Position numbers and translations under genes: made by a program | Origin: Obrimoposthia wandeli | Taxonomy: Eukaryota | NCBI GenBank assembly: GCA_977020255.1 | Contig: CDROCS010001153.1 | Location: forward strand, 310,001-374,000 | DNA length: 64,000 nucleotides | Direction of reading: 5' to 3' | Notes under the pieces: model-generated | What the model was told of the DNA's origin: nothing | What the model saw: the letters and a program-made list of their open reading frames with translations, nothing else | Database searches by the model: none | Part shown: one piece after another, positions 7,441 through 55,581 of the stretch | Numbering within the stretch: the first letter of the stretch is position 1 | How the letters are laid out: each line of letters opens with the position of its first letter

Positions 7441-7446
7441 CCGAAT
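7441..7446 (+). repeat. Left 6-bp target-site duplication CCGAAT
   Basis: Identical to 21800-21805. A 6-bp TSD is typical of Maverick integrases. Confidence 0.95.
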
Positions 7447-7742
7447 AGTAGGTAGATGTGGCACTTCTGGAACAAAGCCCCCCCCTGAGGACAACATTTT
7501 TTAAGGTCAAGTTGAGGACAAAAAATGTAGGTCAAGTTAAGGTCACGGTGAGGTCAAGATGTAGGTCATGACCTCATGAGGTCATGGGAAAAATCTAGGT
7601 CATGACCTCATGAGGTCAAGTCAAGTTAAGGTCAATGTACTTTAAGGTCAACTTAAGGTCATGACGTCATGAGGACAACTTAAGGTCACGGTGAGGTCAA
7701 AAATATTCTATTTTTAGTAACATTCTTTAAATCTATATATCT
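7447..7742 (+). repeat. Left TIR (perfect 7447-7494, then an imperfect AGGTCA-rich extension)
   Basis: AGTAGGTAGATGTGGCACTTCTGGAACAAAGCCCCCCCCTGAGGACAA is the exact reverse complement of 21752-21799. Patchy homology continues to TTTTTAGTAACAT..AAATCTATAT. Confidence 0.93.
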
Positions 7743-8089
7743 TTTTATCTAAAGACTGTATTAACACCAATTCAACAAAATACATCTAGTGTGTGTGTGT
7801 GTGTTTTATAATTTAAATTAAATTATCTACTTATAAAATAAAGTATTATATAATTTGATAAATTTATTTAAACTAAATTAAATTAAACTATCTACTTATA
7901 AAATAAAGTATTATATAATTTGATAATCATGTTTAAACGTTCCTATATCTATCTAACAAAGACAGTCACGTACTGCATCTATATTGCAAAAACCTGCAAA
8001 TTTATGTAAATAAAGACAAGTATTTCAAACACATATATTCCTTAAAATCACAAAGGAGAATAAAAATATGTACAACACATATAAAATGT

Positions 8090-9710
8090 TTATACAACCT
8101 CGTCCGGGTATAAAAAGTGACCATAGGCGACTGAACGGTTTTTCTCCATCCACTTGCGCTTATCATCACTACTACTTAAGGCAATTTTACTTAACCTTAC
8201 AGTGAAAAGTTGATGATTTAGCGAGCTTATACGTTGTTGTTGTACACGCTCGCTAACGCCACTCTCATATACGGCTAAGTAATTAGAGTGCCTAATACTC
8301 GTCTGTCGGAGACTAATACCTTTCGCTCTCATCTGAGATTCACCTTCTGTAGTCTCTAGGCTATATGATTTTGGTCGTAGAAAAATCCCTTGCCTATAAC
8401 TAATTAATCCCTTACTCTCATCTTTAAATTTTCCTATCGCTGTATTAAGCGTCGTATAAAGCGGATGGGTTTTTGGAAATTTCGAGGTATCCAACAGTCC
8501 ATCAGCAATCATAGCAGGTAACAGTGATTCTTGAACATTGACATTATTACACTTCAAGAAAAAGCTATCAGTGTCACCCGCTATAATTCTAATGTCGCAG
8601 TTAAATTGAACTCGATATTTCTCCAACTGCTCATATTGTAGCTCATACATACGAAGTTTGCTTAAATCTAATACCGCCTGGCCCATGTAACTAGGACGAT
8701 CCAAAACAATATTTTCCTTATCCAGTAAAACTGCAATAAGGTCCGTATCGATTTCGATTGTCCTACGAAAGTGGGCTTTACTGCAATAGGTAACCAGCTT
8801 CTGTGGAGTATTACAAATCCGGAGGTTAATTCTTTTCATCAGATTCTCAATGAGTTTTCCAAATAAAGAATTCACCTTCAGTTTATAATAATCCCGCTCG
8901 AAATCTGTTGTAGCCGCAGCTCTTTTGAGAGAATTATCCTCAATATATTTTGAAAAAACATTAGTTTGTTCAAACTGTATTGCTCTATATACAAAATCTA
9001 CCTTAGCACCAAGTCTAACGTACATTTGTAGCAATCTAGAATGCACAACATAATGTTTCTTAGGGTAATGCGTTAATAACAATTTTTCAGTGTTACACCC
9101 TGGTGGATTTTATTATGAAGCTCGAAGGGAATGGATAAATCTATTTCCAATAAATGAGCGAAGCGACTACAGGATAAATCTGCTGATTTTAAGCTGGAAA
9201 TAATATTCCCCAACTCTAACCGATCAGTCAACCAGGAAAAGTTACCACAAGGTAAAAACTGGGACATAGCCCACCCGTACAAATTATTTACATCAATGTA
9301 CAAAAGTTCTGTACCATTGATGGCGTCAACGCGGTGTTCATTAACAAATGTCATACCCCCGCGAATCCCAGACCGGAAGAGTCGGTACATTTCTGGATCC
9401 TGTATTAGCTCGACTCGCACAACGGGAGCAGAAGAAGAAGCCGGACGAAGCAGGGATTTGAAAGCACTCGCGAAAGTCAGTCCTGGAAATAAAATCATTT
9501 ATTAAAATCATTGTGAAAATCATTACTTTGAAAATCATCTATCTAACAAAGACGGTCACGCATCTATATTGCAAATACTTGCATCTTTATGTAATCAATA
9601 GTAACATTTATTCTTGTATATATATATGTGTGAGTATCTAACAAAGACAGTCACGCATCTATATTGCAAATACTTGCATCTTTATGTAATCAATAAAAAC
9701 ATTTATTCTT

Positions 9711-9746
<36 letters not shown>

Positions 9747-12400
9747 GTATCTAACAAAGACAGTCACGTGTGTGTCTAACAAAGACAATCATCAATACTT
9801 ACAAAGACGTGCTGCATCTATATTGCAAAAACCTGCATCTTTATGCAATCAATAGTAACAAGTACTACACTTATTCTTATACATGTATATATATATATGT
9901 GTTAGTGTCTAAAATTAGAAAAATTAGTAAAATACAAACCAGGGATGGAGAAGAAATTGAGTGGCTCCAATCCATCGTCAGCAATGGCCTTGGTCCGGAA
10001 TGCTGTAAACACGTCTGCTAGAAGGTAGACGTCCATCTTCATATAGACCAGCATATAGTCCCAGAGCGATGAGCAGCCGCTCTGAGTCCAGACCATCTTC
10101 GCCATTTCATATTGTGCTGGCTTGATCTTCTCATCCCACTTTGGCGGTAAGCTATTGATTGCGCGAAGAGCAGTCTCTGATACTGCCATATCGTATGGGA
10201 AGATTCCCTTGGCGCTCACCAGATTTTGCGGGAAGACCGAATGTGTAAGAGGAGTCACACCCAGGTTTTTCACAAGTTTTTCTAAGCTGCTGTTCAAAAA
10301 TTGAAGGGAATCGATGAAACGTATACAGACTCCTCCAATATACACCATCATAGCCTGGAATTTCTCTGTTGATTGAGGTATAACAGATACATTCCAGTCG
10401 GGAAACTTGCATAGTGCGTGCTTCAATATGTGGTGCATGTCATAACCCATAAGATTGTGAAAAATGACGGGAAAAGATCGATTGATTCTCCTTGATAAGT
10501 TGCATTTCGTATGCGCTGCTCCCAGGTATTCGCCAGTCATGTGATCGTGATCTCGAACTTTGTTTGCGAGTTTCTTCTTACACAGATAACAGATTCTTGC
10601 TGCATTGAAACTCGATACCTCTTCCTGTGTGAGTTGTCGCATCACCTCGATCGCATGCTTCTTGTACCATGGGAGTACAACCTCTTTCGCCAAGTCCTCT
10701 AATTTCTGCAAAAAGGATACCACACAAGATTCTCCGGTAAAGACCGAGTAATCATGTGTGTACCCTCTCGTGGCTGCAATGGGAGACATGAGCATACCGG
10801 CCGAGATTGGAAGTTGAATCTGATGGTGGATTCCATGTGGTGGCAGCACAGCCTCAAAGTCCGCGTAAACAGCAAAAGGCGGAGAAATCGTTTTTGAAAA
10901 GTCCTTAAACTCAATATGCTTCTCTGTAGGCATTGAATAAAGCGTTGTATGATCTAAATTCATCCTACAGAGTGGAACGTGTTTAGCGTAACTTATTGGT
11001 CTCCGGAAGCCATGAAGACACTTATGGCACCAAGTACACCGAATGCAATTAGATACACCTTTGTTCCTATAATTAAGCAGCCTATTGAGTTTAGGAATAC
11101 CGACATCATGAAAATTATCATTATTTTCTAAAAGGAGAAGATTGATTGGCTTAGCGTCCGGGTTTGTGGTTCTGTAAATGACATCCACATAGGGATTTTT
11201 GAAGATATCCCCATCTGTTTGCACATTAGAGAACCTATTGAATGTAAATACGTTGATTGAGAGAGATGGATTCTTTCTCTCAAATCGCGGTATATTACAT
11301 AGACGCATCGGCATCTCATTCTCATCAAAAACTAATTGACTCAAAAAGGCATCATATTGATTAACCCGATGAGGATTAGAGCGAAATACTTCACGGAAAA
11401 GTACAGATAAGATACTGTAAAGGAAGCAAAAAGCGTTTGAGTTCTGCACATTGATAACGCAATGTGACAGTGCTAACTCAGATGGAGTAGGTATATAACT
11501 ACTTCCCTGGAGATAGTTCATTGTTGTTGTTTTAGTCACAACAAACGAAATCTCCAGGAAGCGGTTCACTACCCAATTACTGCTACTTTGAGAATAATTC
11601 TCAATATTCTTGTTGATTCCATCTACTCCCGCATCTATAAACCCCTCATCTATGGGGAGCCCTCTATTGGAAAAATTCCAAGCGCGTGTTTCTCCAATAT
11701 TGGAAAATTCAACACGCACCCCGAATTGGACCTTGCAAGTCGCAAACTTGCTGACTGTGTCCCTTAAGCTAGTCAAAAGGGATACAGGAACTTGTAAATC
11801 GATGAGATTGTCATTAGAAACATCTAATGACAATGTCTCAATCGTGCCCCGAAGACTAGTCTTTCGCTTAACAGCATCAACCCTGGAAAACTTCGCAACA
11901 GAGCTACCTGAAGTGGGCATAACACTTCTCTTGCGGGTAGATGCTGGTAACGGCGCGAAGATCATACCAACTGGAGGAGGCATAACTGGAACCATTGGTG
12001 CAGCAGATGGTGGCGAAGCAACTGGACTAGTAACTGGAACAGCAGCAGGGGTAGATACTGGAACAGCAACAATTGGGGCAGCAATTGGCGAAGCAGCAAC
12101 AACTGGACCAGCAACCCGAGAAATAGTAGCAGATCTATTCTGAAAGATGGCCTTCTTGCCACGTTGCTGGAAATGACGAAGATGGACACGATGACGCGCC
12201 ACAAACTCCGGCCAATCAATCTCCTCCGCGGAGAGACATACTGAACATACGTAGAATTGTTGTCCGTTGAACTTCTGTCCAAAGTAGCTCTTCATCTTTC
12301 CGTCACATTCCTTGTGACTCTCCTCGAAGCATAATTCTTTGTTCATATTGCAATTCTAGAAAGAAATAAATTAGCAGAAAAATAACAATAAACTTACCAT
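8090..12400 (-). CDS. Protein-primed family B DNA polymerase (pPolB), about 1270 aa when spliced; two introns and one frameshifting deletion
   Basis: Exons 12398-12400 (ATG), 9940-12355 and 8090-9482 (frame break at 9107-9108). ExoI YADFE, ExoII HNLMGYD, ExoIII YMKMD, EndoVII-like CYLC..RDHDHMTG..AHTKCN, motif A IDVNNLYG, motif B KLKVNSLFGK, motif C GDTDS. Confidence 0.93.
9483..9939 (-). other. pPolB intron 2 (457 nt, phase 1), filled with tandem subterminal repeats
   Basis: CCT G|GTTTGT...TTTTATTTCCAG|GA CTG ACT. Splicing restores the conserved FFSIPGLTFASAF..ELIQDPEMY..F..GIRGG segment with no residue lost. Confidence 0.85.
12356..12397 (-). other. pPolB intron 1 (42 nt, phase 0, directly after the ATG)
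   Basis: ATG|GTAAGT...TGCTAAT...TTTCTTTCTAG|AAT TGC AAT ATG. In frame after splicing; the unspliced form has an in-frame TAA. Confidence 0.75.
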
Positions 12401-12531
12401 TTTCAATTTCGTTTATAATAGGGGATTATTTGTTGATTGATGCTTGCTTATATACTATTTTCGAGCTAGTATTAAGCCAATCAGATTCATTCATAATTTA
12501 AACTAACCAGAATAATTTAAAACAGAATAGT

Positions 12532-13041
12532 TTACTGACAGATGTGAGTAGTTGAATTTTCATTAATATTTAAATAATCCAAACTAGCTGCAAAGCATTT
12601 CTTGTATGCACAATGCTCGCCATGTTTAATATATGGACAATTGATATTTGATGGATTTAATTGTTTTAATGTTTTCGAATAATTTATCACTCTAAATTCA
12701 GGAAAATATTTATTGATTGTCTTTATTTTAGCTCCATTATACTCATTCAAAACATAGAAAATTGATTTGGATACATCACAACAACGTTTTATTTCCTCAG
12801 TTATTTCTTGTATCTTGAAATAACTATTACCATCAACTAGTTTTAGTCGATGGTAATGCTTAATGAGATATCTATTTATTTTTCTTGATTTTCTATTCAT
12901 CATGTCCCATATGGGTTGCATTTTAAAAACATAATGTTTAGGATAGAAGATTGCATCCACATCCATTATACATAGTTCTTTTATTACAAATTCAGTATTA
13001 TTATCAATAAAAGCTTCAAAATCAATAAAATAAACAGACAT
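12532..13041 (-). CDS. Maverick accessory protein, DEDD-exonuclease-like (169 aa)
   Basis: Intact ORF. N-terminal IDFEAF..FVIKEL (ExoI-like DxE) and C-terminal C..H..HCA..C cluster. Recognised by motif only. Confidence 0.55.
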   Translation of the reverse strand: MSVYFIDFEAFIDNNTEFVIKELCIMDVDAIFYPKHYVFKMQPIWDMMNRKSRKINRYLIKHYHRLKLVDGNSYFKIQEITEEIKRCCDVSKSIFYVLNEYNGAKIKTINKYFPEFRVINYSKTLKQLNPSNINCPYIKHGEHCAYKKCFAASLDYLNINENSTTHICQ

Positions 13042-13077
13042 TTTTATAGCAATAATTTTATTTGATATTGTTTATAT

Positions 13078-13455
13078 CTATTGTTTATGCTTTAACCAAA
13101 GCTGACAGAGTTGTCCACATGACTGTGTTAAAACATTTTGATAATGTTTCTTACTAAAATGTACTTTCTTTCCAGAATCAAGTACTGTAGATACTAATTT
13201 AGAAGGGTAATATATCCCAAAGGGGTCAAAAACAAAGATTTCATTTTCTTTAACATGTATTGCAATCCAATATTCACCACGCAAATTAGATGAATGTGTA
13301 TTGATTACATATCCACCTAGTCGAGTCAAAGAGGGGATGTGATCAAGGCTGTAGACTCCATTGAAACGCGAACCGAGTAGTTTTCTTCCGCTTTTTGTTA
13401 TCTCGTCCGAACTAGAATATATATTAATTAATAAATTCAAACTGACTTACTTCAT
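13078..13455 (-). CDS. Adenain-like (C5) cysteine protease, spliced (112 aa); catalytic His replaced by Tyr
   Basis: ATG AA|intron|T TCG GAC gives MNSDEI...FNGVY..D.IP...VINT...GEYWIA...FDPFG...YQ....CGQLC. Confidence 0.9.
13412..13450 (-). other. Protease intron (39 nt, phase 2)
   Basis: ATGAA|GTAAGT...TATTAAT...TTCTAG|T. The unspliced form reads ATG AAG TAA, and there is no other ATG near the N-terminus. Confidence 0.8.
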
Positions 13456-13491
13456 TTATATATCTTCTTTATTGTTTTCATTCTGTTTATA

Positions 13492-14713
13492 CTAGTACTG
13501 TTCCTCCTTGGTAATTTGAACCTCAGAATCGAATACTCCATAGATTATAATATTAGTAGGGTGTTCAAGTGCTTTTGAAAACTTGATTTCTACTTTCAAA
13601 TTTCCCTGTTTAGGGATTTGAGCTTGATTAATATCGAAATCAGGAGAGAACAAATGTGAACAGTGTATACTTGTCCTTGAAATCAGTCATTGAAATTCCA
13701 ATATTAGCATCCTTATCCAAATGACCAAGATTTCTAATTAAAGAGTGCACATAAGAAAACACATAATCATCGTTTTCAAAGTCATTCGTATAAGATTCTT
13801 GATAATCAATATTTCGTGCAAGTTTAATTGAACTCACATTCATGTGTCCAAATTGAGAAACCTCATTTTTAGACTCACCTCCATAGGTAGACGTGTTTTG
13901 GAAAGCAATTAAAACAAAGTTTGGAAGTTGCATATCACCAAAAATCTGATCCTTGTAATAAGATAGTGCTCCCGTAGGGATAGCGTGAGAAACAAGATTA
14001 GTTTTTCTAATAGGATAACATGCATTTTGCTTCTCCAACCTCATTCGATGTGCAACAAGTACAGATGGTTCCACCTTTACTCGTCGAACCAGCAGTTTTG
14101 CTTCCGTAATCTCAATTGCGGTTTTAATAGTATCAGCGCAAACAACACTAAAACCTACTGGATTTCTCTTCATTCGAATATGTGCACTTACACCGGGTAA
14201 AATATACTTTGGTTGCTTAAAGAAATCCAAATGGAGACTCCCACAAAGTGACAATACTTTAGACTTTGCAATCGAAGCAAATCTTCTTTTTTCATCATTG
14301 TCAAACCCAATTGCATCAAGATTAATCAATTTCGTATCATTACCGTAATTCAACAATGTTTCAATCATTGCTTTATGGGTGTAACTAGTATTATTTCCCT
14401 CAACTTTCACATTATTGAGACTGAGAATCACATCCTTGAAAAGAGTATACAACATGTAATTAGCTGATTTGATATCCATACCATCATCCAAATCACCTCC
14501 ATCTTCCTTTGTAACTTTCAATTTAACGAGAAATAAACTATCATTCAAATCAAGATATTGAGTATTGGATCCATTAATATTGAATTCTAAATCCGGAGAA
14601 GATGTCCCGTTAACCGTATTTGTTGGAAATATTTCTTCAAAACTAGCACTATCAACCACAACCTGAGGTATAGGTTTATCGAATATACACAATTCAGTTT
14701 TAGCACAACTCAT
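13492..14713 (-). CDS. Major capsid protein (double jelly-roll, F54H12.2-like), frameshifted near 13645
   Basis: CAKTELCIF...LEFNINGSNTQYLDLNDS...GSLHLDFFKQPKYILPGV. The C-terminus (SPDF...KQGNLKVEIKFSKAL...IYGVFD) continues in another frame after a net 2-bp loss in CTCTCC. Confidence 0.85.
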
Positions 14714-15075
14714 TACTTAAAAATTGTTCCACCTAGTTTCAAACGTTTGTTTATACCCGATGCTTTAGATGTTTTCTTACGTTTATAACCACTTCCCTTT
14801 TGAGTTTTCTTTTTCAAAAATTCAGCTAGACTTGGTGAAATTTCATTCACCTGATCCAAGGCTGCATCCTTTAGTGTAGGAAGAAATTTTTCATCACCAG
14901 ACAAGTATTTTGATCCAACATTAGCAATATATTTCCCGAGTCGCTTGAGTAGTGGGAAAGCAAAGCGACCAAAAACCTTCATCCATCCTGATCCATACTG
15001 TTTTCCGGCAAAATAAGGCAAATCACCTCCTTGCATCGGTTTACTATACGCATCGATTATACTTGAATCAATCAT
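14713..15075 (-). CDS. Basic virion core or membrane-active protein with QxGxG/MQGG motifs (120 aa)
   Basis: MQGG, QYGSG and QKGSG motifs, amphipathic GWMKVFGRFAFPLLKRLG, Lys-rich tail. Its stop overlaps the MCP ATG (TAATG). Confidence 0.65.
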   Translation of the reverse strand: MIDSSIIDAYSKPMQGGDLPYFAGKQYGSGWMKVFGRFAFPLLKRLGKYIANVGSKYLSGDEKFLPTLKDAALDQVNEISPSLAEFLKKKTQKGSGYKRKKTSKASGINKRLKLGGTIFK

Positions 15076-16100
15076 ATTTTTCTAAAATGTATTGTTAAAC
15101 TTGTTTTAGCTCCAAATGAAAATTTAATTAATCTTCCTGAATCATCCCGAATGTTAACTTCAATATTGTTTATAGAAGAAGAACTCACAGGAATATACAT
15201 TGGATTTTCAATTGGGATATGTATAATATCTCCATACTTGTGCTTTTCCTGTTGAACCCAAATAGATTTTATTAATGGAAGTTTATTTCCACCCACAAAT
15301 ATCGGTTCAGTAATACTTGTGTAAATATAAATCTGATTATACGCATTACTTAGCTTTGCCCGATTAGATGCTCGGAAAACTTTATTAAGATTTTTAAAAC
15401 TGTTTTCATTGAATCCTATAATTGTAGCTAAATTTTTATCCATATTTATTTCTTTTACATGTGGTTTCAATTTAAACTCAATTATCTCCTTTTTAACATA
15501 AAAGCTTTCAAATATATTATCAATATTTTTCATGAAATATTGACAAACACTTTCAACATTGGAAAATAAGCAATCATTTTCGAATGCATACTGCTCACGT
15601 ACATCCTCTTGATTATAATGATGCATCTTTAACTTTAATGTCGGTAAATCATATTTTTGATTTGGTAATTCCGATTTATAAAACATACTTTCAATAGGAG
15701 CTTCTTTCATACCGTAACTTAATGCTAAACTTTTATTATCAATTTCTAAATTGAAAGCTTGTCCCGTAGTGCGAGTTATACAAATTTTGTTTTCGCCGCT
15801 AAGGTAAATAACATATTTACTATTAATTGGAGTTAAATACTTGACGAAAAATTCTCCATGTTTCATTTTCACACCAGCTTCAACTTCAGTTTTTATTCTT
15901 TTCTCCGCAACATAATCTATAATTGACCCTCCTTTAATGGATAGAGGAGAGTAATTGAAAGAAAATTCCGTCAGAGCAGCTTCCCAATGCACAGGTAAAT
16001 TGATTGAGCTTTGATAATCAATACTAAAACTATTAGCTGTATTATTCGGCTGAGTTAATGGTGAACCATTACTTGGTAATACAACATACATTGAGTTCAT
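15072..16100 (-). CDS. Minor capsid protein (penton, single jelly-roll) with a central insertion domain (342 aa)
   Basis: N-terminal YVVLPSN..P.NTANSF..WEAALTEF; C-terminal IYIYTSITEP..VG..LIK..YIPV..IEVNIRDDSG..F..LTIHFR. ATG 16100 overlaps the INT stop (ATGA). Confidence 0.85.
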   Translation of the reverse strand: MNSMYVVLPSNGSPLTQPNNTANSFSIDYQSSINLPVHWEAALTEFSFNYSPLSIKGGSIIDYVAEKRIKTEVEAGVKMKHGEFFVKYLTPINSKYVIYLSGENKICITRTTGQAFNLEIDNKSLALSYGMKEAPIESMFYKSELPNQKYDLPTLKLKMHHYNQEDVREQYAFENDCLFSNVESVCQYFMKNIDNIFESFYVKKEIIEFKLKPHVKEINMDKNLATIIGFNENSFKNLNKVFRASNRAKLSNAYNQIYIYTSITEPIFVGGNKLPLIKSIWVQQEKHKYGDIIHIPIENPMYIPVSSSSINNIEVNIRDDSGRLIKFSFGAKTSLTIHFRKI

Positions 16101-17127
16101 TCTATTTGAGAAGCTAATATCCAACTAGGTTCAGTATATCCATGCCACTTAACATGATATTGTTTATGCTTTCCTCTACCTTTTGTCTCTAAAATTTCTT
16201 GGATTCTATATACATTTGGTTTCTCAGGCAAGACTTGTAATTCCTCATAATAAAATTTACCCGTGATTACATTATTGGTTTCATCCTCAATGAAATACAT
16301 TACCGGCATACGTTTATTATCAATTTTAGTTATACGAAATACTTCATCGCTCCAATTCTCTTTGAAATTCTTTATAAAAGGAGTAGTACTAATTTGAGAA
16401 ATACGTACATAATCACCAACTTTATACTTGGGTTTCTGCGCAACTTGACTTTGGTTACGGCGTTGCCAAATTTCCATAGCATTCTCATCTGTAACATCAA
16501 CGGGTCTCTTTCGGTCTAATGATGAGTGTTCACTATGATTGTATGCATGTATTATTTGAGATAAAACAGTAACCCAGGACTTATTTCCCTGCTTTGTGAA
16601 ATACTTTTTCAAACGATCTCTCAATGTTCGATTAAAACGTTCAACTAAAGCGGCTTTATATTGGGAAAATACTGAGTAATGATTAATATTATGTTTTTTC
16701 AATAGTGTTTCAACATGTTTATTATAAAACTCCTTTCCACTATCCGTTTGGAAATTTCTTGGTTTTATTTCTTTAATCAAAAGCTTCATTGCGGTTAAAA
16801 CATCGGTCTAACACTCTTGGACTTTAATGGAATAGCTCGCGCGAATCTGCTAAAGACATCAACACAAGTTAAAATATATCGATATCCGTCGTTAATACTC
16901 GCATACGGAATCATTTCCATCAAATCTGCTTTCCATAAATCATTCGGGCCGCTCGTTTTGTATGATCTCGTTCGGAACCGACGTCTCATTGGTTTGTTTA
17001 AGCTGTAAGCTAATTGATTTCTCAACCACGCCTGAGTTTCCTGCTTTGTCTTCTTTGACTCTTTTGCTAATTTTGAAACCCCTGTGTAACCAACGGGATG
17101 ACTTGGATCGAACCATATTTTCTCCAT
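16097..17127 (-). CDS. Retroviral-like c-integrase with C-terminal chromodomain, frameshifted at about 16810
   Basis: DDE triad in ADL / QTDSG / VERFNRT; chromodomain YRIQEIL...YHVKWHGY. A 2-nt insertion splits KSKSV|TDVLTAMK. Confidence 0.92.
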
Positions 17128-17224
17128 TGCAGCAAGACGATTTGATTTTTAAATTGAATTTAGGAATAGATGGAAGTGATCCCATATATAAATTCATATT
17201 ATTGATTCGAATTTATGTTTATAA

Positions 17225-17570
17225 TCATCGGTTTATTAGTCTACTAGCAAGTGCACCAACTATTGAGCTAATAATTGGTACGAGAAATCCTAAAAATCCA
17301 CCACTTTGCTTATAAAGCAACTTACGTTTACCGATTCGTGTTTTGGCATGAAACAAAGCAAGTAGAGGTTTCTTATGCCGATTCAGGTTAGCCTCGACAA
17401 TTATTTTACCAGAAACTATTTTCTGTATCATATTAAGTAAATCATCTATTACAAAAGTAGGGAATGATTTAAGAATAGCTGGGCGGCGAATAGCAGGTGC
17501 ACGCATGAGAGAATTGAAATAGGCAATACTCCTAGATTTCTTAACAACAGTTCTTTTCGATTTTGAGCAA
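17225..17570 (-). CDS. Small conserved Maverick protein (PW-like) with QSGGFLGFL amphipathic C-terminus; start uncertain
   Basis: R..ILK...I.DLLN.I..IV.G.I...KRKLLYKQSGGFLGFLVPII pattern. The frame is open upstream of ATG 17506 to about 17595. Confidence 0.6.
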
Positions 17571-17642
17571 CCATTTTCCTTGCACTTAAAACTGATTTAA
17601 TCAATTTTTTAACTTCGGGTTTAACAGTTTCCTTTTTAAAAT

Positions 17643-18289
17643 TCATCTTCTCAAAACTGGTTTCTTTGTTTGTTTATAGACGGTTATTCCCGATGGATTG
17701 AATACATCAGTTCTAACTCTAAAGTCATCGGGACAATCTTGAGTAAAATCAATAAAAATGTATCCATGAGGAATAGTAGTTGCATCTTGAAATGAATCAA
17801 TTAAAAACTTTCTATTATTCGGGTAAGCTTGTCTTGAAACAAAATCAACAACCGTCTGATCACGTGGATTCTTGAAGAGAACAAGGTAATGTACATTTAA
17901 ATTACGAGTTCTATGGTTCCATAGATCTATAGATTTTGTGTGATGAAAATAACAGTTACTTCCTGATGTCGTGCTATTTTAGTGAATAAATTATTGAAAT
18001 CACTCTCTTTATTTGCTTCTTGATATAAATCATCAATAACAATAACATCATGTCGTTGTAATCGCTCAGACCAATTATCATCGAATCCATTAATGACTTT
18101 TATATTTTTGATTTTCTTAAACTCTTTACTGGTTAAACCAGCTTCTCCATCTCCTCCCTGATGCCAGTATATTTTATTAAACTTAAAACTAAAGTATTTA
18201 TTATTTTGCAGTAATTTACATACAAAATGTGTTTTCCCACTACCACAAGGACCTACAATCTGAAAAACTGAATTATTTTTTAAGTTCAT
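17643..18289 (-). CDS. A32/FtsK-like genome-packaging ATPase, disrupted at 17915-17930
   Basis: Walker A GPCGSGKT, Walker B VIVIDD, then ITQNL*. The second half (HRTRNLNVHYLVLFKNPRD...HGYIFIDFTQ...RVRTDVF) is in another frame and ends at TGA 17643. Confidence 0.9.
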
Positions 18290-18332
18290 ATTAAAAATAT
18301 TAGATTATCGGGATAATGTTTATAAGACAAAA

Positions 18333-18611
18333 CTATTTAAAATATTTTATTACGAAACATCCAGCAACAAACAATAAAAAACTCTTCTCGTAGAAAAAGC
18401 TCCTTTTCTCTTCTTTGTTTGCGAGTTTCTTCTGATTGTATCCCTGAATGAGAAGATTGACTGCCTTGTCGTGCACCATTCTTCTTACGTGCTCCTCCAG
18501 GGGTAGATTTGAGACATCAATGAGTTGCAGGACATCTGGTTCTATGAAATTCTTCGAGATGAAGCTCTTCACCGCCTTGTCAACATCTTGTTTGAAATAG
18601 TTTTTAGACAT
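18333..18611 (-). CDS. Hypothetical 92-aa protein with C-terminal hydrophobic segment
   Basis: ATG 18611 preceded by TAGTATATAAGCA; ends FLLFVAGCFVIKYFK. Confidence 0.55.
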   Translation of the reverse strand: MSKNYFKQDVDKAVKSFISKNFIEPDVLQLIDVSNLPLEEHVRRMVHDKAVNLLIQGYNQKKLANKEEKRSFFYEKSFLLFVAGCFVIKYFK

Positions 18612-18680
18612 AATGATGATGAAGAAGTAAAAAGTAATCTGCTTATATACTATACATCTGAAATCTGATTGGTTAATAAA

Positions 18681-18860
18681 GACTAATAAAGACACTAAAG
18701 ACACTGAATAATAAAGACACTAAAGACACTGACTAATAAAGACACTAAAGACACTGACTAATAAAGACACTGACTAATAAAGACACTGACTAATAAAGAC
18801 ACTGACTAATAAAGACACAGATTAATAAAAACACTGACTAATAAAGACACTGATTAAAGA
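18681..18860 (+). repeat. Tandem array of a roughly 16-bp unit (GACTAATAAAGACACT) with AAAGACACT sub-repeats
   Basis: Directly visible. Confidence 0.9.
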
Positions 18861-18876
18861 TAAAGACGAATAAAAT

Positions 18877-19671
18877 TTACACATGATAACGATTAAAAAT
18901 ACGTATTTGATGAAGCATAGCTTCATTAGGAGCAGCAATAGTCCGTTTAGCTTTAACAAGATTCGAAGCAGCAGTAACACCAATCGAATGAGATAAAAAT
19001 GCAATAACAATGCAAGCAGCATGTAAACTACCATAATGACCACATACTAAAATCTTACCACCATTTTCGATAGTTTCTTTAATTATATTATTAGTCTGTT
19101 TATAATACTTCATTATTGTTTCTCCTAATTTTGAGTTTACAAAGACAGAAGTATATTTTAATTTCTTATAAGATATTTTATCCAGTATAGATGTATTGAT
19201 TACATGAGTGAAATTGGAATTCAAAAGATTAGTTTCATCAAACCCATCTCTATAATTACCAATATATAATTGATTTACTAAAATCTCACTCATCGCTATT
19301 TTGTTTAACTTTTCTACATTAAGTTGAGTAAATCTAGCACTAAACAAACTATCAAAAAGATGGGTCATGTGGTTCATTTCCATACTCGAAGCATGAGCTA
19401 TTATGGGTTCCATAAAAGCCAAAGCATTTAAAAAATCTATCCGTCTCTTATCTTCAATAATTGGATCTATAATAATTTCTTCTTCTATCGTCACTTCATC
19501 AATAGTTTCTTCTCTTCTTATAACTGTTGTTGTTGTTGCTGGTGGTGATGATGTTACTGATGATGTTACTGATGATGTTGCTGGCGATGATGTTGTTGGC
19601 GATGATATTGCTGGTAGTGATGATGTTGCTGGCGATGATGTTGCTTCTGGTGCTGAATTGATTTTCTCCAT
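18877..19671 (-). CDS. Dual-specificity-phosphatase-fold pseudophosphatase with Ser/Thr/Pro-rich N-terminus (264 aa)
   Basis: QLYIGNY..THVIN..KILVCGHYGSLHAACIVIAFL..VKAKR..APN..QI aligns to the DSP pattern LYLG..THILN..KVLVHCxxGxSRSATIVIAYL..VKxKR..PN..QL. Confidence 0.85.
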   Translation of the reverse strand: MEKINSAPEATSSPATSSLPAISSPTTSSPATSSVTSSVTSSPPATTTTVIRREETIDEVTIEEEIIIDPIIEDKRRIDFLNALAFMEPIIAHASSMEMNHMTHLFDSLFSARFTQLNVEKLNKIAMSEILVNQLYIGNYRDGFDETNLLNSNFTHVINTSILDKISYKKLKYTSVFVNSKLGETIMKYYKQTNNIIKETIENGGKILVCGHYGSLHAACIVIAFLSHSIGVTAASNLVKAKRTIAAPNEAMLHQIRIFNRYHV

Positions 19672-19704
19672 TTTATCAATTCCGAGTCAATTTAGTCTTA
19701 TATA

Positions 19705-19947
19705 TTAAACAAGGTTTGATTTCATTGGAGCATCAGTTTCATCATATGATTTGATTGGAGTATTATTCAATATTTCCATTGTACTTAACATCTCATGTAA
19801 ATGTAGTTGATGACGTAACCTAAAGAGTTAAATAAACTACATATAAATATTACTCATGATTATTTTTCCTAATTAAAGCATTGAGAATAACTGAAGCAAG
19901 ATCTTTTAATGCATCCTGAACCTCTTTACATTCAATAATTTATCCAT
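19705..19947 (-). CDS. Putative 69-aa spliced ORF (34-nt intron 19820-19853; needs one extra base after ATG GAT AA)
   Basis: CAT GA|GTAATA...TTTAAC TCTTTAG|G TTA CGT joins two stop-free frames: IIECKEVQDALKDLASVILNALIRKNNHE and LRHQLHLHEML...SNLV*. Confidence 0.4.
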
Positions 19948-20108
19948 TTTATGATAAAGCAAATCAAATATTGTTTATAACCCATGAAAAATCTATTTTT
20001 AGACCACAACTATTTGCAACATTACAACGTTTGCAACTATTTGCAAGTAATGACATGTGATGTCTTTGTCTTAGTATAAACAATATTTTGATAATGATTT
20101 TATTGAAA

Positions 20109-20309
20109 ATGGATAATCAAAATAATCAAAATAATGAAAGTAGAGCTAGTACATACATAGGTTTCGGTAGTAATTTATATTCTAATATGAATTATAATAG
20201 AAATAATCAGAGAGAAAATATTAATCCATCAAGTCAAACAATAACAAGTCCTACGCGCGTAACCGAAGAACGTGAGCCCTTTAAGGATATGACTAATACT
20301 AGACGATAA
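20109..20309 (+). CDS. Hypothetical Asn/Ser-rich protein (66 aa)
   Basis: ATG 20109 preceded by TAGTATAAACA; C-terminal REPFKDMTN. Confidence 0.45.
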   Translation: MDNQNNQNNESRASTYIGFGSNLYSNMNYNRNNQRENINPSSQTITSPTRVTEEREPFKDMTNTRR

Positions 20310-20422
20310 ACAAGAATGTTAACCAATTGAGACTAATCGATTTTCATAAACAAGAATATCGACCAATTAGAATCGAGCTTTAGAGGAAAAACAATTGAAT
20401 ATTTCAATTTATAATTGTCAAT

Positions 20423-20811
20423 ATGAATTTCGAAAAGCTATATCAACCTATGCATACATATTATGAATATGAGATGCACTTTTGAAGAAAGCTCATAACT
20501 ATAATTTTATTTTTCCTGTCAACATCGAGCCGCTTAAATTTGATTTTGAAATATCAAATTTGACTTCTGTGGATAAAGAGAGAATCAATATTCTCTTGAC
20601 TCAATTCGGAATCAACTATGCGCTTCAGGAAAACAAATTCGTAATCAAAGGATCAACTGCCACTTTCAAGCATGAGAATGGAACAATATACGAAGCACCT
20701 CCTCCTAAGCTAGAATGGATTATCTCAATCAGAATTCAAGGATGCAAGATCGGACCCAGTGGATTGGAAACTCCGATATGGAAAATAATTGATGCTGTTA
20801 GAGTTGACTAA
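20423..20811 (+). CDS. Hypothetical protein of about 129 aa (frameshift near 20472), possibly beta-rich OB-fold
   Basis: MNFEKLYQPMHTYYEY joins DALLKKAH...WKIIDAVRVD if one base is restored. Confidence 0.55.
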
Positions 20812-20878
20812 TAAATTTTTGTGTCTTTATTTGTATTATTTTATATATATAAACAATAGTGATACTTTAATATTTATT

Positions 20879-21246
20879 ATGAAAATGACTAAAAAACCTA
20901 CTAAATCATTAAAGACTAAGGTTAAAAAGACTATGAGTAAAAAGACTATGAGTAAAAAGAAAATCATGGAGGGTTTGGGTATTCATATGATGGCAGAAAA
21001 AATCTTTTAGGTAGATGGTTTGGCGGAGTTGATAAAAAAGCTATAAAGCACAAAAAGAATGTGGATTATTTGAGAGGTATACAAAATCAGAAACGAGTGC
21101 AAAAAGGAGATGGTATACAAAAAGGGGATGGTATGCTTGATATTTTTGTAAAATTAGATAAACTTACAAAAGCATTTGAAAAGGATCCTAGTGCCTATCT
21201 TGGTCCAAAACTAAACTTTTTAGCAAACCGACCAAAAACTTTGTAA
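20879..21246 (+). CDS. Lys-rich basic core-like protein with protease-site motifs (frameshift at the T-run 21006-21009)
   Basis: MKMTKKPTKS...KKTMSKK x2...MEGLG...|LGRWFGG...QKGDGIQKGDG. Confidence 0.6.
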
Positions 21247-21384
21247 TTACATTGCAATATAGATGCAGTACGTCTTTGTTAGACACTCACATATATATAT
21301 ATACATGTATAAGAATAAATGTTACTATTGATTACATAAAGATGCAAGTATTTGCAATATAGATGCGTGACTGTCTTTGTTAGA

Positions 21385-21799
21385 TAGATATAGATTTTAA
21401 GTATGTTACTAAAAATATAATCTTTTTGACCTCACATGACCTTAAGTTGTCCTCATGACGTCATGACCTTAAGTTGTCCTCATGACGACATGACCTTAAG
21501 TTGACCTTAAAGTACATTGTCCTCATCATGACCTTAAGTTGACCTTAACTTGCCTTGACCTCATGACCTACATCTTGTCCTCATCGTGACCTTAAGTTGT
21601 CCTCATGAATTTAAATAAAAATCATGTGTACTCGGGAGAAATTTGACCTACATCTGTCATAAAAAATTTGAGTTCAAAAATTTTCGCGCAAATTTCAAAA
21701 TTTGACCTAAATTTTTTGTCCTCATCAAAAAATTTGACCTACATTTTTGACTTGTCCTCAGGGGGGGGCTTTGTTCCAGAAGTGCCACATCTACCTACT
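21385..21799 (-). repeat. Right TIR (perfect 21752-21799, imperfect and longer extension)
   Basis: Reverse complement of the left TIR, with extra TGACCT modules. Confidence 0.93.
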
Positions 21800-21805
21800 C
21801 CGAAT
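21800..21805 (+). repeat. Right 6-bp target-site duplication CCGAAT
   Basis: Identical to 7441-7446. Confidence 0.95.
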
Positions 21806-22165
21806 TTTCTTAACAAAGAAATATAACGAATTTATTTTGATTTTTTAAAAATTGAGTGAAATTGTTTAGAACTAAATTTGCTTTAATCGATAAATATTGA
21901 AGCAATATATCGAAGTTATTGTAATTATGCATTTTACATGTAATATTGATAAGTGATTTTGAATATTTATTTGTGAATTTATCGTGACAGAGTAATTTTT
22001 GAAATTTGATAATTTACAATTTTTATACTTTATTGTACTGATAAACTTCTTGTGAAGCGACATCATACACTATTTTAATAAACATTTTGTAAAGGTGAAT
22101 GTGTTTTTTAAAGGAATGAATGTTAATGTTAAAATAAAACTCGATGTATTTTTAAACAATCTCAC

Positions 22166-22309
22166 CGATTTAAAAAACTCCCGACCGGATTTCCCACCTC
22201 TCTTCAATAGTCCCACTGTGTTGCAGTGTTTTCTGCGTTGATTCGCCTCGTACAACGTCTGATCTGCGATGCCTCCTTTGCCATAAGTCCCCGGTGCCGG
22301 GAAACAATC
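22166..22309 (-). CDS. CIMAP2/LEXM-like exon 5 (DCFPAPGTYGKGG...FFKS)
   Basis: Acceptor TTCTTTTAG, donor GTGAGA, 48 codons, PAPGTYG motif. Confidence 0.8.
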
Positions 22310-22975
22310 CTAAAAGAAAGAAGCTTTGTAAATTATCTCTCTTCTGTACAACAGGTGTATCAAGCTCCTCATATTTTAAAATAAAACTTTAATGACATGA
22401 ACAAAATGTGTCGATTTTATAGAAAGATATGGATGCCTATAAATTAGTTTCAGTTCCTCATCTCGTTTTTTTATAAATATTTTTATGTATTCTTGACTGA
22501 TTTGTTCATAATTAGTTGAAATCTGTTTAGAAAGATTTCATATGATTGTACAATAATGAATTGTAGAAGTCTTGCCTAGAAGTGACATTTATAAATCTGG
22601 TCTTGAATTCTTTTCATAAATATTTTCTGATTTTACTTATTCTTCTTATTTAATAATTATGGCTTTACACAATATTTTTACTTGATTTTTGATAACAATT
22701 TTTGCATATGCCATCAACCTTAATGTAAATTTCAGACTGAATTAATAACATAAGTATTTTTTGAAAAATTGTTATTTCAATTTTTTTTTATTTCATTTCA
22801 GATATATTTTAAACACCAAGTTTTATATTTCAAAAATTACATTTCACTCAGACATATAGCGGCGTGTCATCAGCATAGAAAATATATGGCATTTTAAGCT
22901 TGTTTAAATATATTCTTTATAGAACTTGTATGCCTAGGAAATAAATTGGTGATTTGGCACTGTATTGCTGGATCT

Positions 22976-23262
22976 TGTTGACACTGACTTGATTCTCAAT
23001 TGAGTCACTTTGCGAATTCTTCTTAATTGATTCACTTAATAATTCTGTTTTTTGGGGCCTTTTGCTTTAATTTTAACTCTTTTATATATAACACATGCTT
23101 ACACATGACCTTTGTGGTCTTAATATTTTCCCACTAATTTTATTTTTATGATTTTAATTTTATAATTAATTTTATCCTAATTATAACTTTGCTTTCAAAG
23201 ATTTTTATTTTTGTATATAAATGATTAATTATTTTAATTTTAGTCAAAACCTAATCCTAACA
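22976..23262 (-). mobile_element. Truncated LTR fragment, same family as 56739-59177 and 63374-64000
   Basis: Shares TTGCTTTCAA.GATTTTTATTTT...TTTTAGTCAAAACCTAA..CA with 59110-59177. Confidence 0.6.
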
Positions 23263-24104
23263 AATGAAAAATTTCGTGTTCCGGACAAATTATAACTTTT
23301 GCACAGGCTTGATTGTACCAACATTAAACTTCAGACAAAAACAGATTTTTTTAGTGTAAACTTTCCCATATTGTAAAAATGAGAAATAACATAAAAATGA
23401 CAATTATACAGAAATTTGCTTTAAAAAGCCTCAGTCGCAAATGTATTTACTATTTCATTATTATTACACAATATAACAAAAACTAACTAAATATTATTCA
23501 TTATTTAAGATGCTAATAGATTTGCCATTATTTATTGTTTCAATTTTTATGTTTTGAGCTCTAGAACGCATTTGTCGTAAGGTTGCTAATGCTCTCTCGA
23601 CAATTTCATTTGTCATACTAACGCTTAATTTGGGCCGTTGCGTATATTAGTGTTTTTAAGAAATGTATAACATGTTGTTTCATTTTGTACTGATTCCCAA
23701 AGAGACTTCCACAAATCTAATACTTTTTCATAAGACCTGTTTATCCATAAATTCATCCACGCACCAGTTAAAAAATTATAACATCTGAAAATAATATAAT
23801 TAATGCAATAATTCATACTAAGTCCAAGTAAAGACGCCTTTAAAGCAAAAATAGCTCTTAAATTCCATCTTGCTTCATATTTGTTTTTTCTCAATAAGTG
23901 TAACAAATACTGAAAGCTTCAAGTTCCTAGTAGTAGTTTTGAGATATATAATATATCCTACATTCTTGGACTGACTGGGACTGTTTAACTAAATTCTATC
24001 ACAAAAAAGTAGTTGCCATTTTAAGATAAAACGAGTATTTTTAAACTTTTCTTTTGGTAAATAACAAAATAGGTACATTAATTTTAATTTTTCCATCTAC
24101 TCAC

Positions 24105-24221
24105 TCTATTTATTGCTCTGAAACGACAATTCCTAGACTGCATAGACACCGCCGCATTGTGTTCGTTGGCATCTTCGAGAAACGTTGTATACTCGTACTT
24201 ACCTGGACCCATACGTCTTTT
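24105..24221 (-). CDS. CIMAP2/LEXM-like exon 4 (KRRMGPGKYEYTTFLED...RFRAINR)
   Basis: Acceptor TTTTTCACAG, donor GTGAGT, 39 codons, GPGKY motif. Confidence 0.75.
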
Positions 24222-24505
24222 CTGTGAAAAATGAAAAATAATTGTACATAATAACAATTGTTAAGTAAATTTTTAATAATTTCAAAATTACGAAAAATAA
24301 TTAAATTAATTAGTTATTTTCTAATTAACGGATTTTATTCGCTAAAAGAAATTCATGATTTCTATTTTTACGTTGATAAATATAAATGATATAAGAATAA
24401 AATAAATTATAAAAAGTTTGTTTCAAAATCTTTGTTTAAATGTATTGTTAACTTCTAAAAATCAAATTTGTTATCAATATTTTTATTTAAAATAATATAA
24501 ATCAC

Positions 24506-24670
24506 TTGCTCTTCCTTTTCTTTGTAAAGATATTTACTCATAAAATGTGGGATTTTGCCTTGTTGTTCAAGAAACAGAGCTCTTTGCCAATCACTCTTTA
24601 AGGTTTCCTTGTCGAGCTTCTTTTCATCAAAACAAGATGTAAAAGACAAATCATATTTTCCAGGAGCCAT
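24506..24670 (-). CDS. CIMAP2/LEXM-like exon 3 (MAPGKYDLSF...DWQRAL...KEEQ)
   Basis: Acceptor TTCAG, donor GTGATT, 55 codons, APGKY motif. Confidence 0.75.
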
Positions 24671-25619
24671 CTGAACGTAAACATTATCAATAATAATGAA
24701 TAATCATTTCACAAATTATAATCGTTTTCATAACCTGGCCCTGGTATCAAAAAAACGTACTAACTTAAGATATTTTAAACACACTATTTTTTATTGTAAA
24801 CGAATGAAAATATGTTACAAAATATTACTGCTATATTTAATTTGCTTTGAAATAAATAAATATAATTTATAAATTATCTACAAATGTTAAATCCAAAATC
24901 AAAATGGAATGGTCAAGGTTAGTTAAAATATTTAAAAGCATATAATAATTACTTTTCGTATGTATATTTGAGTATTCGAGTTAGATAAATTTAAGAAATC
25001 CTATATCTGTATTTATTAATTACTAATTATTGATACTGTTGACAACATGTTAATAAACTGTCACTGGATCAAAATAAATTAGTCATGTAATCAGAAATCG
25101 GAAATATCATACCGACAACATTTGTTTGTAAAATGCCATCTATACATGTATAAATATATATTGTGTTTGTAGAATCTGACTCTTTAATTATGCCTACGAT
25201 AGAAAATATAATTAAAAGTAAATTTTGTAATGTGCAATGAATGTTGATTTTACAATTAAATTTTCAAATTAATACATTTGTAAAAACAAAATTTCAGCTT
25301 TATAAATAATATTAAAATTATTTAACTTGAAAACGTAAATTTTTTCTTTATGTTAAAAAATAATAAATATAAAACTACGCAAATTACTAACCAATTATAA
25401 TTTTTTAAATTAGTACATTTTCAAAAACTCCATAATTTTCTAACTTTAATCCAATGATATTTTAGGTCACTAAAATAAACTTTTACAAGGAATTTATTCA
25501 ATTTTATTATTGATATATGAGATAATTTTTTTTTTAAAAACATTAATATTTAAATATTATTGTAATTTTCTGCATTTAATTTTTTCAAGATAACCAAAAG
25601 ATTTCTTACTTTGATAAAT

Positions 25620-26800
25620 GCAGTTGCTTTCTATTGTTACCAGTTCAAATGGTGAGGATTTTAATGATGAACCAGAAATAGAAATTATATCTTCTGCAAA
25701 TGCAAAAATAACCGCCGAAGAAAATATTGGTGCTAAAAAACTTGAGGAAGAATCCCGAAAGTGGGCCAAGTGGAATCAAAATACATTATAAAAACCATAT
25801 TTTTCGTTTAGATGCCATACTAGCAAAAAAAGGTTTTCAAAGTAAAGATTATCCAATGAATTTCCTCAAGAAAAATAAAAACAAAGAAATCCAAAACTTA
25901 ACATAAAAAGTCAAATATCAGCTCTCATGTTTGCACTAGCATCAATGTTTGGCAACATAAAACCCTTGTTAGTTTCAAAAGATTCTTATGTGATTTTTAA
26001 ACTTTACATGAATGATAACATATGACCTCATCAAGGTTCAATCTGGAATTTATATTAAATGAAACGGCAACTGCTCTTTTTTTCTGGCTGATTAAGATTT
26101 GTCTGTTTTAAACTATTTTTCTTTAAAATGGATTAAAGATTTTACAACAAGAGCATATCTAATGGACCATTTCAATTTATGCTGTTGGTTTTAGCTACGT
26201 TTTCGGGGTATCCTCTTAAGTTCAATATTTATACTGATACGACATAACGTAGAGTTACGCCATTAGGACAACATGTAGCTACTCAATTAGTGAAAGATAT
26301 ACCCCATTCAGAAAATCATCGAATTTGTATAGACAACTTTCTTAGCTTAACAAACATTTTTCAAATTCTTGGAGATCTATTGAAGCTAAAGTGAAAATGA
26401 TCTAATACTTTATCTGAACATATGAAGAAAAAAGGAAAGAGGAGAGTTTGAGTACTTCCCTGAGTGAATGTTTGTGAATGAGTAGACAACAAAGAAGTTA
26501 TCCATATTCCTATAAACTCATTCCAGTTAAATTGAACAAGATTTATTATTCGAATGTTGATCGAATATGCTACATCTAAGAAATACATCCCTGAACTGAG
26601 AGACATACAGATTTTTTCATCTCAAAATTCTGTTGATGAACATTTCCTCAAAATGACGAACAAAAGGACGATTCAAGCTATGCTAAAAGAATACTTTTTT
26701 AACAAATGTAAGCACATAACGTTTTTGCAAAGTATCACTCGTGTTAATAAAAACTTTGCTACACTTAATCTTAAATACTTTTTTTTCTATAGTCAATCTC
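25620..26800 (+). mobile_element. Degenerate piggyBac-like transposase remnant
   Basis: SGYPLKFNIYT (26203-26235), LGQHV, and IDNFLS (about 26328). Many stops. Confidence 0.6.
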
Positions 26801-27490
26801 CAAATTTTCAAAATTATTAACATCTCAAAAATAGCTTTTATTTGACTTATTATTTTTTTTATTCCAGTTCTGTTTAAAATTTTAATAAATAATTTAAAGT
26901 TTATTTTAAATTTTTTCTTCTAGTTATTAGTTTGGCAGCTTTATTTAAATAAACTTATCTTAGCAAAGAGACCCTTGCAGGGACGAAGATAAAGTCAATG
27001 CACTGTTTCCATATGTGTCTTGGAAATTATAAGTCTTTTTTGTAATAAATGTATCAAATGTAGTGTTCTATTTTTGTTTTATTATGTGTTTATTTTTTAA
27101 AATTATACTTTACCAAATTTTATGGTTTATTATTATGGTACGACTACAAAATTGTGAAATCCCTCATGTCGATAGTCGAGTCAATATACTTCTGGCTCTG
27201 CGTGGTTTTAACATTATCCTATATATAAATTCTGTGGAAAATAAGTCTATTTTCATTATTTTTGCCATATTCGAATTGTTATAGAATCATTTTTACAAAG
27301 AATATTTTATAATTTGCGTTAACTATTTTATTTAATTATTTAAAGATTTGTTTTGATGGATTCAAAATCTTTTAAATATTTACAACTCAAGATTCTCAAT
27401 TTTTTATTTAATTAATATTGAGCAGAAAGCGTAAAAAGCGATATATAATCTAATAAATAAATTGAAAAATAATTAGAACAATCTACTAAC

Positions 27491-27563
27491 TTCTTTATCA
27501 TGAGTTTCTGAGCCCATTTTCCCCTTTTCAACTCTTTGAGGATGAATTCCCCATGGTTTAAAC
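27491..27563 (-). CDS. CIMAP2/LEXM-like exon 2 (FKPWGIHPQRVEKGKMGSETHDKE)
   Basis: Acceptor TTCAG, donor GTTAGT, phase 2 to 0. Confidence 0.75.
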
Positions 27564-27598
27564 CTGAAGAGAATTTGTCAGACAAATACACAATTTAC
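27564..27598 (-). other. Host 35-nt spliceosomal micro-intron
   Basis: GTAAAT...CTGAC...CTCTTCAG. Removal gives in-frame CG|G TTT AAA (R-F-K). Confidence 0.8.
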
Positions 27599-27654
27599 CG
27601 TGGAACGATTGAGCCATTAAATCCTTTTGTGTTGAGGTATGAAGTTGATGTCAT
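27599..27654 (-). CDS. CIMAP2/LEXM-like ciliary microtubule-associated protein, exon 1 (MTSTSYLNTKGFNGSIVP-R)
   Basis: ATG at 27654 and donor GTAAAT at 27598. Eight exons join in phase: 27599-27654, 27491-27563, 24506-24670, 24105-24221, 22166-22309, 5859-6002, 3440-3610, 101-241. They give a protein with repeated (G/A)PGxY motifs in the order I recall for LEXM/CIMAP2. The gene continues beyond the window start. Confidence 0.75.
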
Positions 27655-55500: not shown

Positions 55501-55581
55501 GATTATCATTGTCAAGTCGAGTCTATTGTATTTTTTCTTGAAAGTTTCTTATAAACATATATATGTTTGTGATTTTTTAAA

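Follow-up and report, generated by a model that had tools for sequence, protein, structure and literature searches.

The DNA analysed here, referred to below as the window, is a stretch of 64,000 nt from Obrimoposthia wandeli (assembly GCA_977020255.1, contig CDROCS010001153.1, positions 310,001 to 374,000 of the forward strand). It contains a copy of a Maverick/Polinton element, designated family A, in which the genes for the polymerase pPolB and an adenovirus-type cysteine protease, as well as one small gene, are interrupted by four segments with GT...AG ends on the minus strand (42, 457, 39 and 34 nt; 18-26% GC). It is very probable that these segments are functional spliceosomal introns; this can be said with most assurance of the internal pPolB segment and the protease segment, and with less of the 34-nt one. 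The element is a member of the Mavericks, as is evident from its terminal inverted repeats (TIRs), the 6-bp target-site duplication and the presence of genes for pPolB, an integrase, a packaging ATPase and the protease. Three pieces of pPolB matched PF03175 and 471 homologues of the protein were found; the protease was recognized by a profile match to adenain (E 7.7e-8), and a search of the genome with the PF00770 profile gave no match. The element and its interrupted genes are located as follows.

7447..21799: the Maverick/Polinton copy (family A) as a whole, 14.35 kb, decayed, identified by AGTAG inverted termini, TIR arms and gene set
8090..9482, minus strand: pPolB exon 3 with the polymerase motifs (PF03175), the frame broken near 9110 in the window copy
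9483..9939, minus strand: pPolB internal intron, 457 nt, phase 1, within the P/G motif
9537..9888: copies of a subterminal repeat inside the internal intron, matching the element's own ends
9940..12355, minus strand: pPolB exon 2, N-terminal part, 805 whole codons
12356..12397, minus strand: pPolB 5' intron, 42 nt, phase 0, right after the ATG
12398..12400, minus strand: coding part of pPolB exon 1, the ATG only
13078..13411, minus strand: exon 2 of the adenovirus-type cysteine protease, a frame without methionine, with a substitution in the predicted catalytic motif of the window copy
13412..13450, minus strand: protease intron, 39 nt, phase 2, at a position common to six lineages
13451..13455, minus strand: coding part of protease exon 1, ATG plus 2 nt
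19705..19819, minus strand: exon 2 of a small gene, 37 open codons
19820..19853, minus strand: probable intron of the small gene, 34 nt, phase 2, without cross-family support
19854..19947, minus strand: exon 1 of the small gene, frameshifted in the window copy

The coordinates, lengths and GT-AG ends given for the four segments in a first-pass annotation of this DNA proved exact, and phase arithmetic agrees with the in-frame joins that it proposed for pPolB and the protease, each downstream exon lying in the correct frame. The segments have a GT donor, an AG acceptor, a U-rich interior and a size in the host range, as do U2-type introns, the 34-nt candidate being 2 nt under the host minimum seen. 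Judged by phase arithmetic and by separate alignments of the exons, the reading frame is recovered when they are taken out, and the residues brought together are neighbours in homologues. From these features we infer that the segments are spliced.

Sister copies were scanned at 30 loci selected with the intron and 30 selected with the exons for the internal pPolB segment, and in 20 further stretches for the other three. The segments are present at the same positions family-wide with GT and AG kept, which is the opposite of the copy-specific insertions with degenerate ends that the first-pass annotation had named as evidence against introns. It is exceedingly improbable, for the same reason, that they are inactivating insertions or other decay in dead copies, with GT and AG ends arising by chance. 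Such an origin is suggested by the decayed state of the window copy, by the large share of the element's own subterminal repeat in the biggest segment, and by vertebrate surveys, in which insertions of this kind are treated as decay (PMC8097293). However, the segments occur in every anchored copy, and also in other families with different interiors; the intron-bearing families have spread to very high copy number; and a query representing an intronless pPolB junction returned 30 loci, all contiguous (28 of family B and two of family D), with no intronless family-A copy among them.

The protease intron is the strongest result of the analysis. In six lineages of Mavericks in this genome (A, A2, B, C, D and E) the gene has one common layout: ATG plus 2 nt, an intron of 34-43 nt, and then one base followed by the coding body. 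The GT-AG intron of 39 nt was found in all 17 anchored family-A copies (of 20), while in A2 it is mostly 37 nt long, and a distant viral protease used as query recovered 30 loci (8 of A and 22 of A2), every one with the intron, one of them offset by a local frameshift. Introns of 38 nt in family B (5/5), of 36-43 nt in family C (30/30, with 27 GT-AG, one GC-AG and two AT-AG pairs, five of the copies coming from one tandem array), of 39 and 40 nt in family D (2/2) and of 43 nt with an AT donor in one family-E copy occupy the same position. Protease identity between lineages reaches down to about 52%, and the intron cores of A and B, and of B and C, are no more similar than shuffled sequences. 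Judging by this distribution, the protease intron is older than family A and was already in place before the six lineages of the genome diverged. The tandem array (G000:C141:1283755-1287778; L195-L199) consists of units of about 927 bp, each with a family-C protease and its intron.

None of 20 family-A protease frames contains a methionine. Among the top 36 database homologues of the protease, 20 have their own methionine at most three residues from the opening motif, four carry a hydrophobic extension ending in serine, two have other extensions, six lack the opening motif and four could not be anchored. The serine corresponds to the position at which translation would read through AG/T, and the four extensions therefore point to a protease intron in other relatives, as an indirect sign. 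Four of the eight closest database proteases have a predicted N-terminal extension of this kind. It may be imagined that in an animal Polinton clade reaching beyond this host genome the protease starts on a 5-nt mini-exon, with splicing serving as a licence or timer of virion maturation and representing an early step toward adenovirus-style control by splicing; on the sequences at hand we regard this as unlikely. In adenoviruses the start exon comprises no more than a few codons. Five protease-like frames at distant pPolB loci each have their own methionine, a metagenome scan for relatives yielded a single 1.1-kb capsid contig without a protease, and scans of viral contigs with capsid and protease queries found no relatives. 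The database entries P0364 and P0514, considered as spliced and unspliced forms of one gene, proved not to be so.

The internal pPolB intron was present at 30 of 30 intron-selected loci; at the 30 exon-selected loci, 28 of which could be anchored, 27 had GT-AG ends and none was intronless. The first-pass annotation had proposed that its removal rebuilds the PGL-x-F/W motif of the polymerase, and comparison with homologues bears this out. The end of exon 2 coincides with the motif proline in 114 of the 115 homologues that cover the site (out of 120), and 113 continue with x-[LMFY]-x-[WFY]. In the closest homologues the gap between the two exon alignments is a single split codon. In sister copies exon 3 stays open for as many as 474 codons. 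An impression that database homologues of about 800 aa end at the intron was wrong: these entries are N-terminally partial, and of the 115 just one stops 14 residues or less from the site.

In 57 natural copies the internal intron is 118-559 nt long, with 32, 14 and 11 copies in the three length classes modulo 3, and all have the GT donor and 56 the AG acceptor. The sister family A2 (10 stretches) has an intron of 139-145 nt at the identical site in all five junction-complete copies. The interiors of the A and A2 introns are no more similar than shuffles, and the first 10 nt and the terminal CAG are retained; the flanking coding sequences differ by a synonymous divergence (dS) of about 1.3-1.4 and a nonsynonymous divergence (dN) of about 0.055. 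Fixed position and ends with a diverging interior, the pattern that the first-pass annotation had proposed to look for, are thus found across families, for the internal pPolB intron between A and A2 and for the protease intron among six lineages. When L254, L258 and L250 were compared with L009, dS between A and A2 pPolB was about 1.3-1.4 in exon 2 and 0.17 over the greater part of exon 3, a difference suggesting that the two families have recombined.

These data also bear on whether splicing is needed at all. If translation of pPolB began at two starts and gave two proteins, and that of the protease began at a non-AUG or internal codon, the segments could remain in the RNA; exon 3 has a methionine at codon 31, the family-C protease has an internal one, and for some database homologues the predicted start is an internal methionine. 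The stretch of 30 codons that leads from the acceptor to the first methionine of exon 3 is, however, under purifying selection (dS 0.57-0.66, dN 0.016-0.048) and is therefore coding, which a split gene would not predict. Moreover, the break lies inside a codon of a conserved motif, and in six lineages the protease retains both ATG plus 2 nt and the GT/AG pair, in the frame needed for splicing. Translation without splicing is thus very improbable. Only by removal of the segments is a complete polymerase obtained in a simple way, and likewise, in family A, a protease that has its start codon.

Intronless relatives, with which the first-pass annotation had suggested a comparison, exist within the same genome. 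Besides the contiguous loci of B and D, families C and E are contiguous at the P/G site, so that four lineages (B, C, D and E) lack the internal intron carried by A and A2; at 13 distant pPolB loci (23-34% identity) no intron-sized gap was seen at this site. A quick pPolB tree was built from 65 natural pieces upstream of the site, leaving out homologue pieces of at most 200 residues. It joined A and A2 with a support of 100 amid intronless relatives, and the simplest account of this grouping is that the internal intron was probably gained once, in the ancestor of A and A2.

The interior of the internal intron contains the subterminal repeat in 55 of the 57 family-A copies. Since the two shortest A copies and A2 do not have it, the repeat appears to be a later addition. 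On the same grounds the terminal repeat was rejected as the source of the intron. Another candidate source, a duplication of the P-G-L codons, fits both intron ends in family A but not the A2 acceptor, and the idea is weak. The repeat insertion also brought in a TTTAG at nt 30-35 of the intron.

The two remaining segments are less well supported. The 5' pPolB intron has GT-AG ends in 16 of 18 anchored sister copies (of 20) with a modal length of 43 nt, the 42 nt of the window copy being a variant. Start-proximal pPolB introns occur also in A2, in family B (just 5' of the ATG, 5/5) and in one family-C copy, and none was seen in D or E. At the 5' end of A2 pPolB (e.g. L254, about 1200-1560) the N-terminal module and short intron are apparently duplicated, giving two start-proximal introns. 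The 34-nt segment is a plausible intron: it has GT-AG ends in 12 of 12 anchored sisters (of 20), the resulting small gene of about 70 residues has an in-frame ATG in 10 of the 12, and the unspliced frame stops one codon past the donor.

The host is an animal, the best matches of its myosin being to flatworms (78-82%). The first-pass annotation had taken its evidence that the host handles short introns from two candidate introns, 27564-27598 (minus strand) and 28220-28261 (plus strand). Both have GT-AG ends, but for the open reading frame (ORF) after the second there was no match in Pfam and no convincing one in the Atlas. The short class was found instead in the host myosin and chaperonin genes, where 72 candidate introns at 21 loci have a minimum of 36 nt; 15 of the 72 are at most 45 nt and 32 at most 65 nt long, and two have the donor GTTTGT. 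Introns of 37-43 nt therefore fit the short-intron class of the host and 34 nt lies just under it. The proposed sizing of the element's introns to this class stands for three segments, which are in it or just below it, but not for the internal pPolB intron with its 118-559 nt. Besides the intron-bearing CCT genes, the genome contains about 20 dispersed, uninterrupted Cpn60/TCP1-like ORFs of about 550 aa (L116-L129 and others), an expanded family.

The following sequence of events may be proposed. Host RNA polymerase II (Pol II) would transcribe integrated or nuclear copies of the element, and the host spliceosome would remove the GT-AG segments from these transcripts, so that the element would need host splicing for both its polymerase and its protease. 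The protease intron parts the start codon from the coding body. The internal pPolB intron would have begun as a short AT-rich intron in the A/A2 ancestor, family A later acquiring the subterminal repeat. Selection would hold the splice sites while the interiors drift, and fixed introns would be retained because the loss of a splice site would destroy the protein. A start-proximal intron may in addition aid expression, by intron-mediated enhancement or by escape from the silencing of intronless DNA; analogies from other hosts are the HUSH system, which silences intronless DNA in human cells (PMC8770142), and a 5' intron in Caenorhabditis elegans (PMC6591249). The dependence on splicing that the first-pass annotation claimed would thus hold for the internal pPolB and family-A protease introns, but not for the 5' pPolB intron, given a methionine three codons into exon 2.

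Constitutive splicing, with no switch, would be expected under this scheme. A regulated gate, in which retention of an intron or use of an alternative acceptor would block polymerase and protease in most cells and permit them in a certain cell type or stage, is improbable. It is true that unspliced family-A protease RNA would have no start codon, the frames being devoid of methionine, and that unspliced pPolB RNA would stop 12 residues past exon 2; the donor GTTTGT is non-consensus, an earlier candidate acceptor is present in 54 of 57 copies, and intron-bearing genes mark the latency programme of a giant endogenous virus (bioRxiv 10.64898/2026.10.09.758095). However, the introns have no conserved interior sequence fit for a regulatory element, and their splice signals are ordinary for the host. 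The earlier acceptor was brought in by a late insertion of the repeat, which A2 does not have, and its use would yield an intron below the smallest size seen in the host. The internal pPolB intron, moreover, is missing from four lineages. The suggestion of the first-pass annotation that splicing gates replication and virion maturation by cell type is unsupported.

Several points weigh against the view that the segments are constitutively spliced introns. The whole case stands on DNA sequence. In the four sequencing runs considered (one sample, its kind not on record) none of the 15 joints listed, of 234, matched an intron, and depth over 9000-18600 was broadly even and DNA-like; these runs are uninformative either way. 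Between A and C the similarity of the protease intron cores exceeds that of shuffled sequences (fraction 0.003), and divergence is incomplete in that pair. Translation could start without splicing at the internal methionine about 18 residues into exon 2 of the family-C protease, and likewise at the in-frame methionine of family-A pPolB exon 2, bypassing the 5' intron. The TTTAG in 54 of the 57 family-A internal introns could compete as an acceptor. The small gene with the 34-nt intron has no homologue in other families, and 34 nt is below every one of the 72 host introns, which were themselves called by an approximate script, a few with low scores. Finally, the pPolB tree is a quick version with a midpoint root for drawing only, and the expression benefit of introns is an analogy.

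The remaining parts of the element are as follows.

7441..7446: left target-site duplication, 6 bp, identical to the hexamer at 21800-21805
7447..7738: left TIR, the arms pairing with 21388-21799
12532..13041, minus strand: ORF of 179 aa with a DEDD-like acidic motif and homologues in other families
13640..14713, minus strand: putative major capsid protein, double-jelly-roll-like, the frame broken near 13640
14713..16124, minus strand: small conserved ORF and putative minor capsid protein
16097..17148, minus strand: retroviral-like integrase, split by a frame break, PF00665 and PF13683 below cut-off
17643..18304, minus strand: packaging ATPase, split by a frame break, with Pox_A32 and P-loop matches
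18877..19686, minus strand: dual-specificity phosphatase cargo gene (PF00782, E 6.5e-13)
21388..21799: right TIR
21800..21805: right target-site duplication, 6 bp

The family-A TIRs consist of a perfect outer arm of 48 nt and inner arms, and end in AGTAG (AGT-type). The ORF at 12532..13041, without a Pfam match, we take to be DEDD-exonuclease-like, and the names given to the two products of 14713..16124 are assumed from position. The putative capsid protein has an Atlas score of 0.97 to clusters named major capsid protein, just 14-16% of whose members carry a double-jelly-roll-like Pfam domain. Both halves of the integrase match rve, below the curated cut-off because the gene is split in the window copy. 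This copy has frame breaks in pPolB, the capsid, integrase and ATPase genes and the gene with the 34-nt intron, and many sisters are free of them, with frames of 410 aa for the capsid protein, 349 aa for the integrase and 221 aa for the ATPase. The phosphatase gene is present in family A and in one A2 stretch.

The 1.35-Gb genome holds very many copies, with 25,422 candidates; 150 were scored and nearly all of these were 98% identical. First-look counts of Maverick candidates (17,600-33,578) point to a very large load, and Mavericks of different families were seen nested or adjoining (G000:C3111, C815, C4089, C504). Elsewhere in the window, a 154-bp hairpin element at 61456-61609, whose AGTAGG termini are of the Maverick type and which has a target-site duplication of 6 bp, represents a miniature non-autonomous derivative, and a 118-aa ORF at 55573-55929 contains a motif that we presume to resemble a BIR (IAP) domain.

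Introns in Maverick core genes would have practical consequences. Interrupted core genes have been scored as decay (PMC8097293), and viral genes have been stated to lack introns (PMC9356565). Mavericks are routinely annotated by ORF calling, which would count lineages with introns among the dead ones and give their proteases a wrong start. Having a conserved intron would tie the elements to nuclear transcription by host Pol II, and may limit their jumps to hosts unable to splice introns of about 40 nt. The internal pPolB intron, in A and A2 and absent from four relatives, would be a dated intron gain in a mobile element, useful for the study of intron origin, and reverse transcription PCR across a junction would be a clean assay of Maverick expression despite the very many DNA copies.

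In the literature searched, which did not extend to the founding papers, Repbase or supplements, conserved spliceosomal introns are not reported from the core genes of animal Mavericks, and looking up terms in PMC10748475, PMC8502044, PMC6431247, PMC11161782 and two 2026 preprints yielded nothing relevant. Published accounts agree with the first-pass annotation that Mavericks are described as intronless: intact vertebrate elements are reported without introns (Barreat and Katzourakis 2021, PMC8097293) and in nematode ones introns are confined to cargo genes that the elements have captured (Widen et al., bioRxiv 10.1101/2022.07.12.499685). Family A shares with these elements the TIRs, the 6-bp duplication, pPolB, the rve integrase, the packaging ATPase, the adenovirus-type protease and the putative capsid genes, but differs in that two core genes have lineage-conserved introns. 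The usual phrase "intronless core ORFs", which is descriptive rather than diagnostic, does not apply to it.

Spliceosomal-type introns are also found inside the introner-bearing maverick-polinton-like elements of dinoflagellates, but these are mobile and mostly gained after integration by single copies, whereas the introns described here are fixed, inherited by all copies and conserved in position (PMC11957031). No dispersed introner-like family was seen in our data, in which no search was aimed at one, and the interior of the big intron instead corresponds to sequence from the ends of the element. The Polinton-like viruses of cryptophytes also have introns; unlike the GT-AG segments of family A, they are self-splicing group I introns of 309-376 nt in a small gene beside the capsid gene (PMC12220804). 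Punuivirus of Chlamydomonas is, similarly, a dsDNA virus that integrates and whose own genes contain spliceosomal introns resembling those of the host (bioRxiv 10.64898/2026.10.09.758095). It is, however, a nucleocytovirus whose introns show enrichment in the genes of latency and have the support of RNA-seq, in contrast to those of family A, which lie in replication and maturation enzymes and are known from DNA. Adenoviruses differ in being lytic and non-integrating, with long, alternatively spliced units, and homology of intron positions is unsupported; nevertheless, they are related dsDNA viruses with a protein-primed polymerase and a protease of the same family, and they splice their replication genes, the pTP of the E2B unit being made from two exons (PMC11304566).

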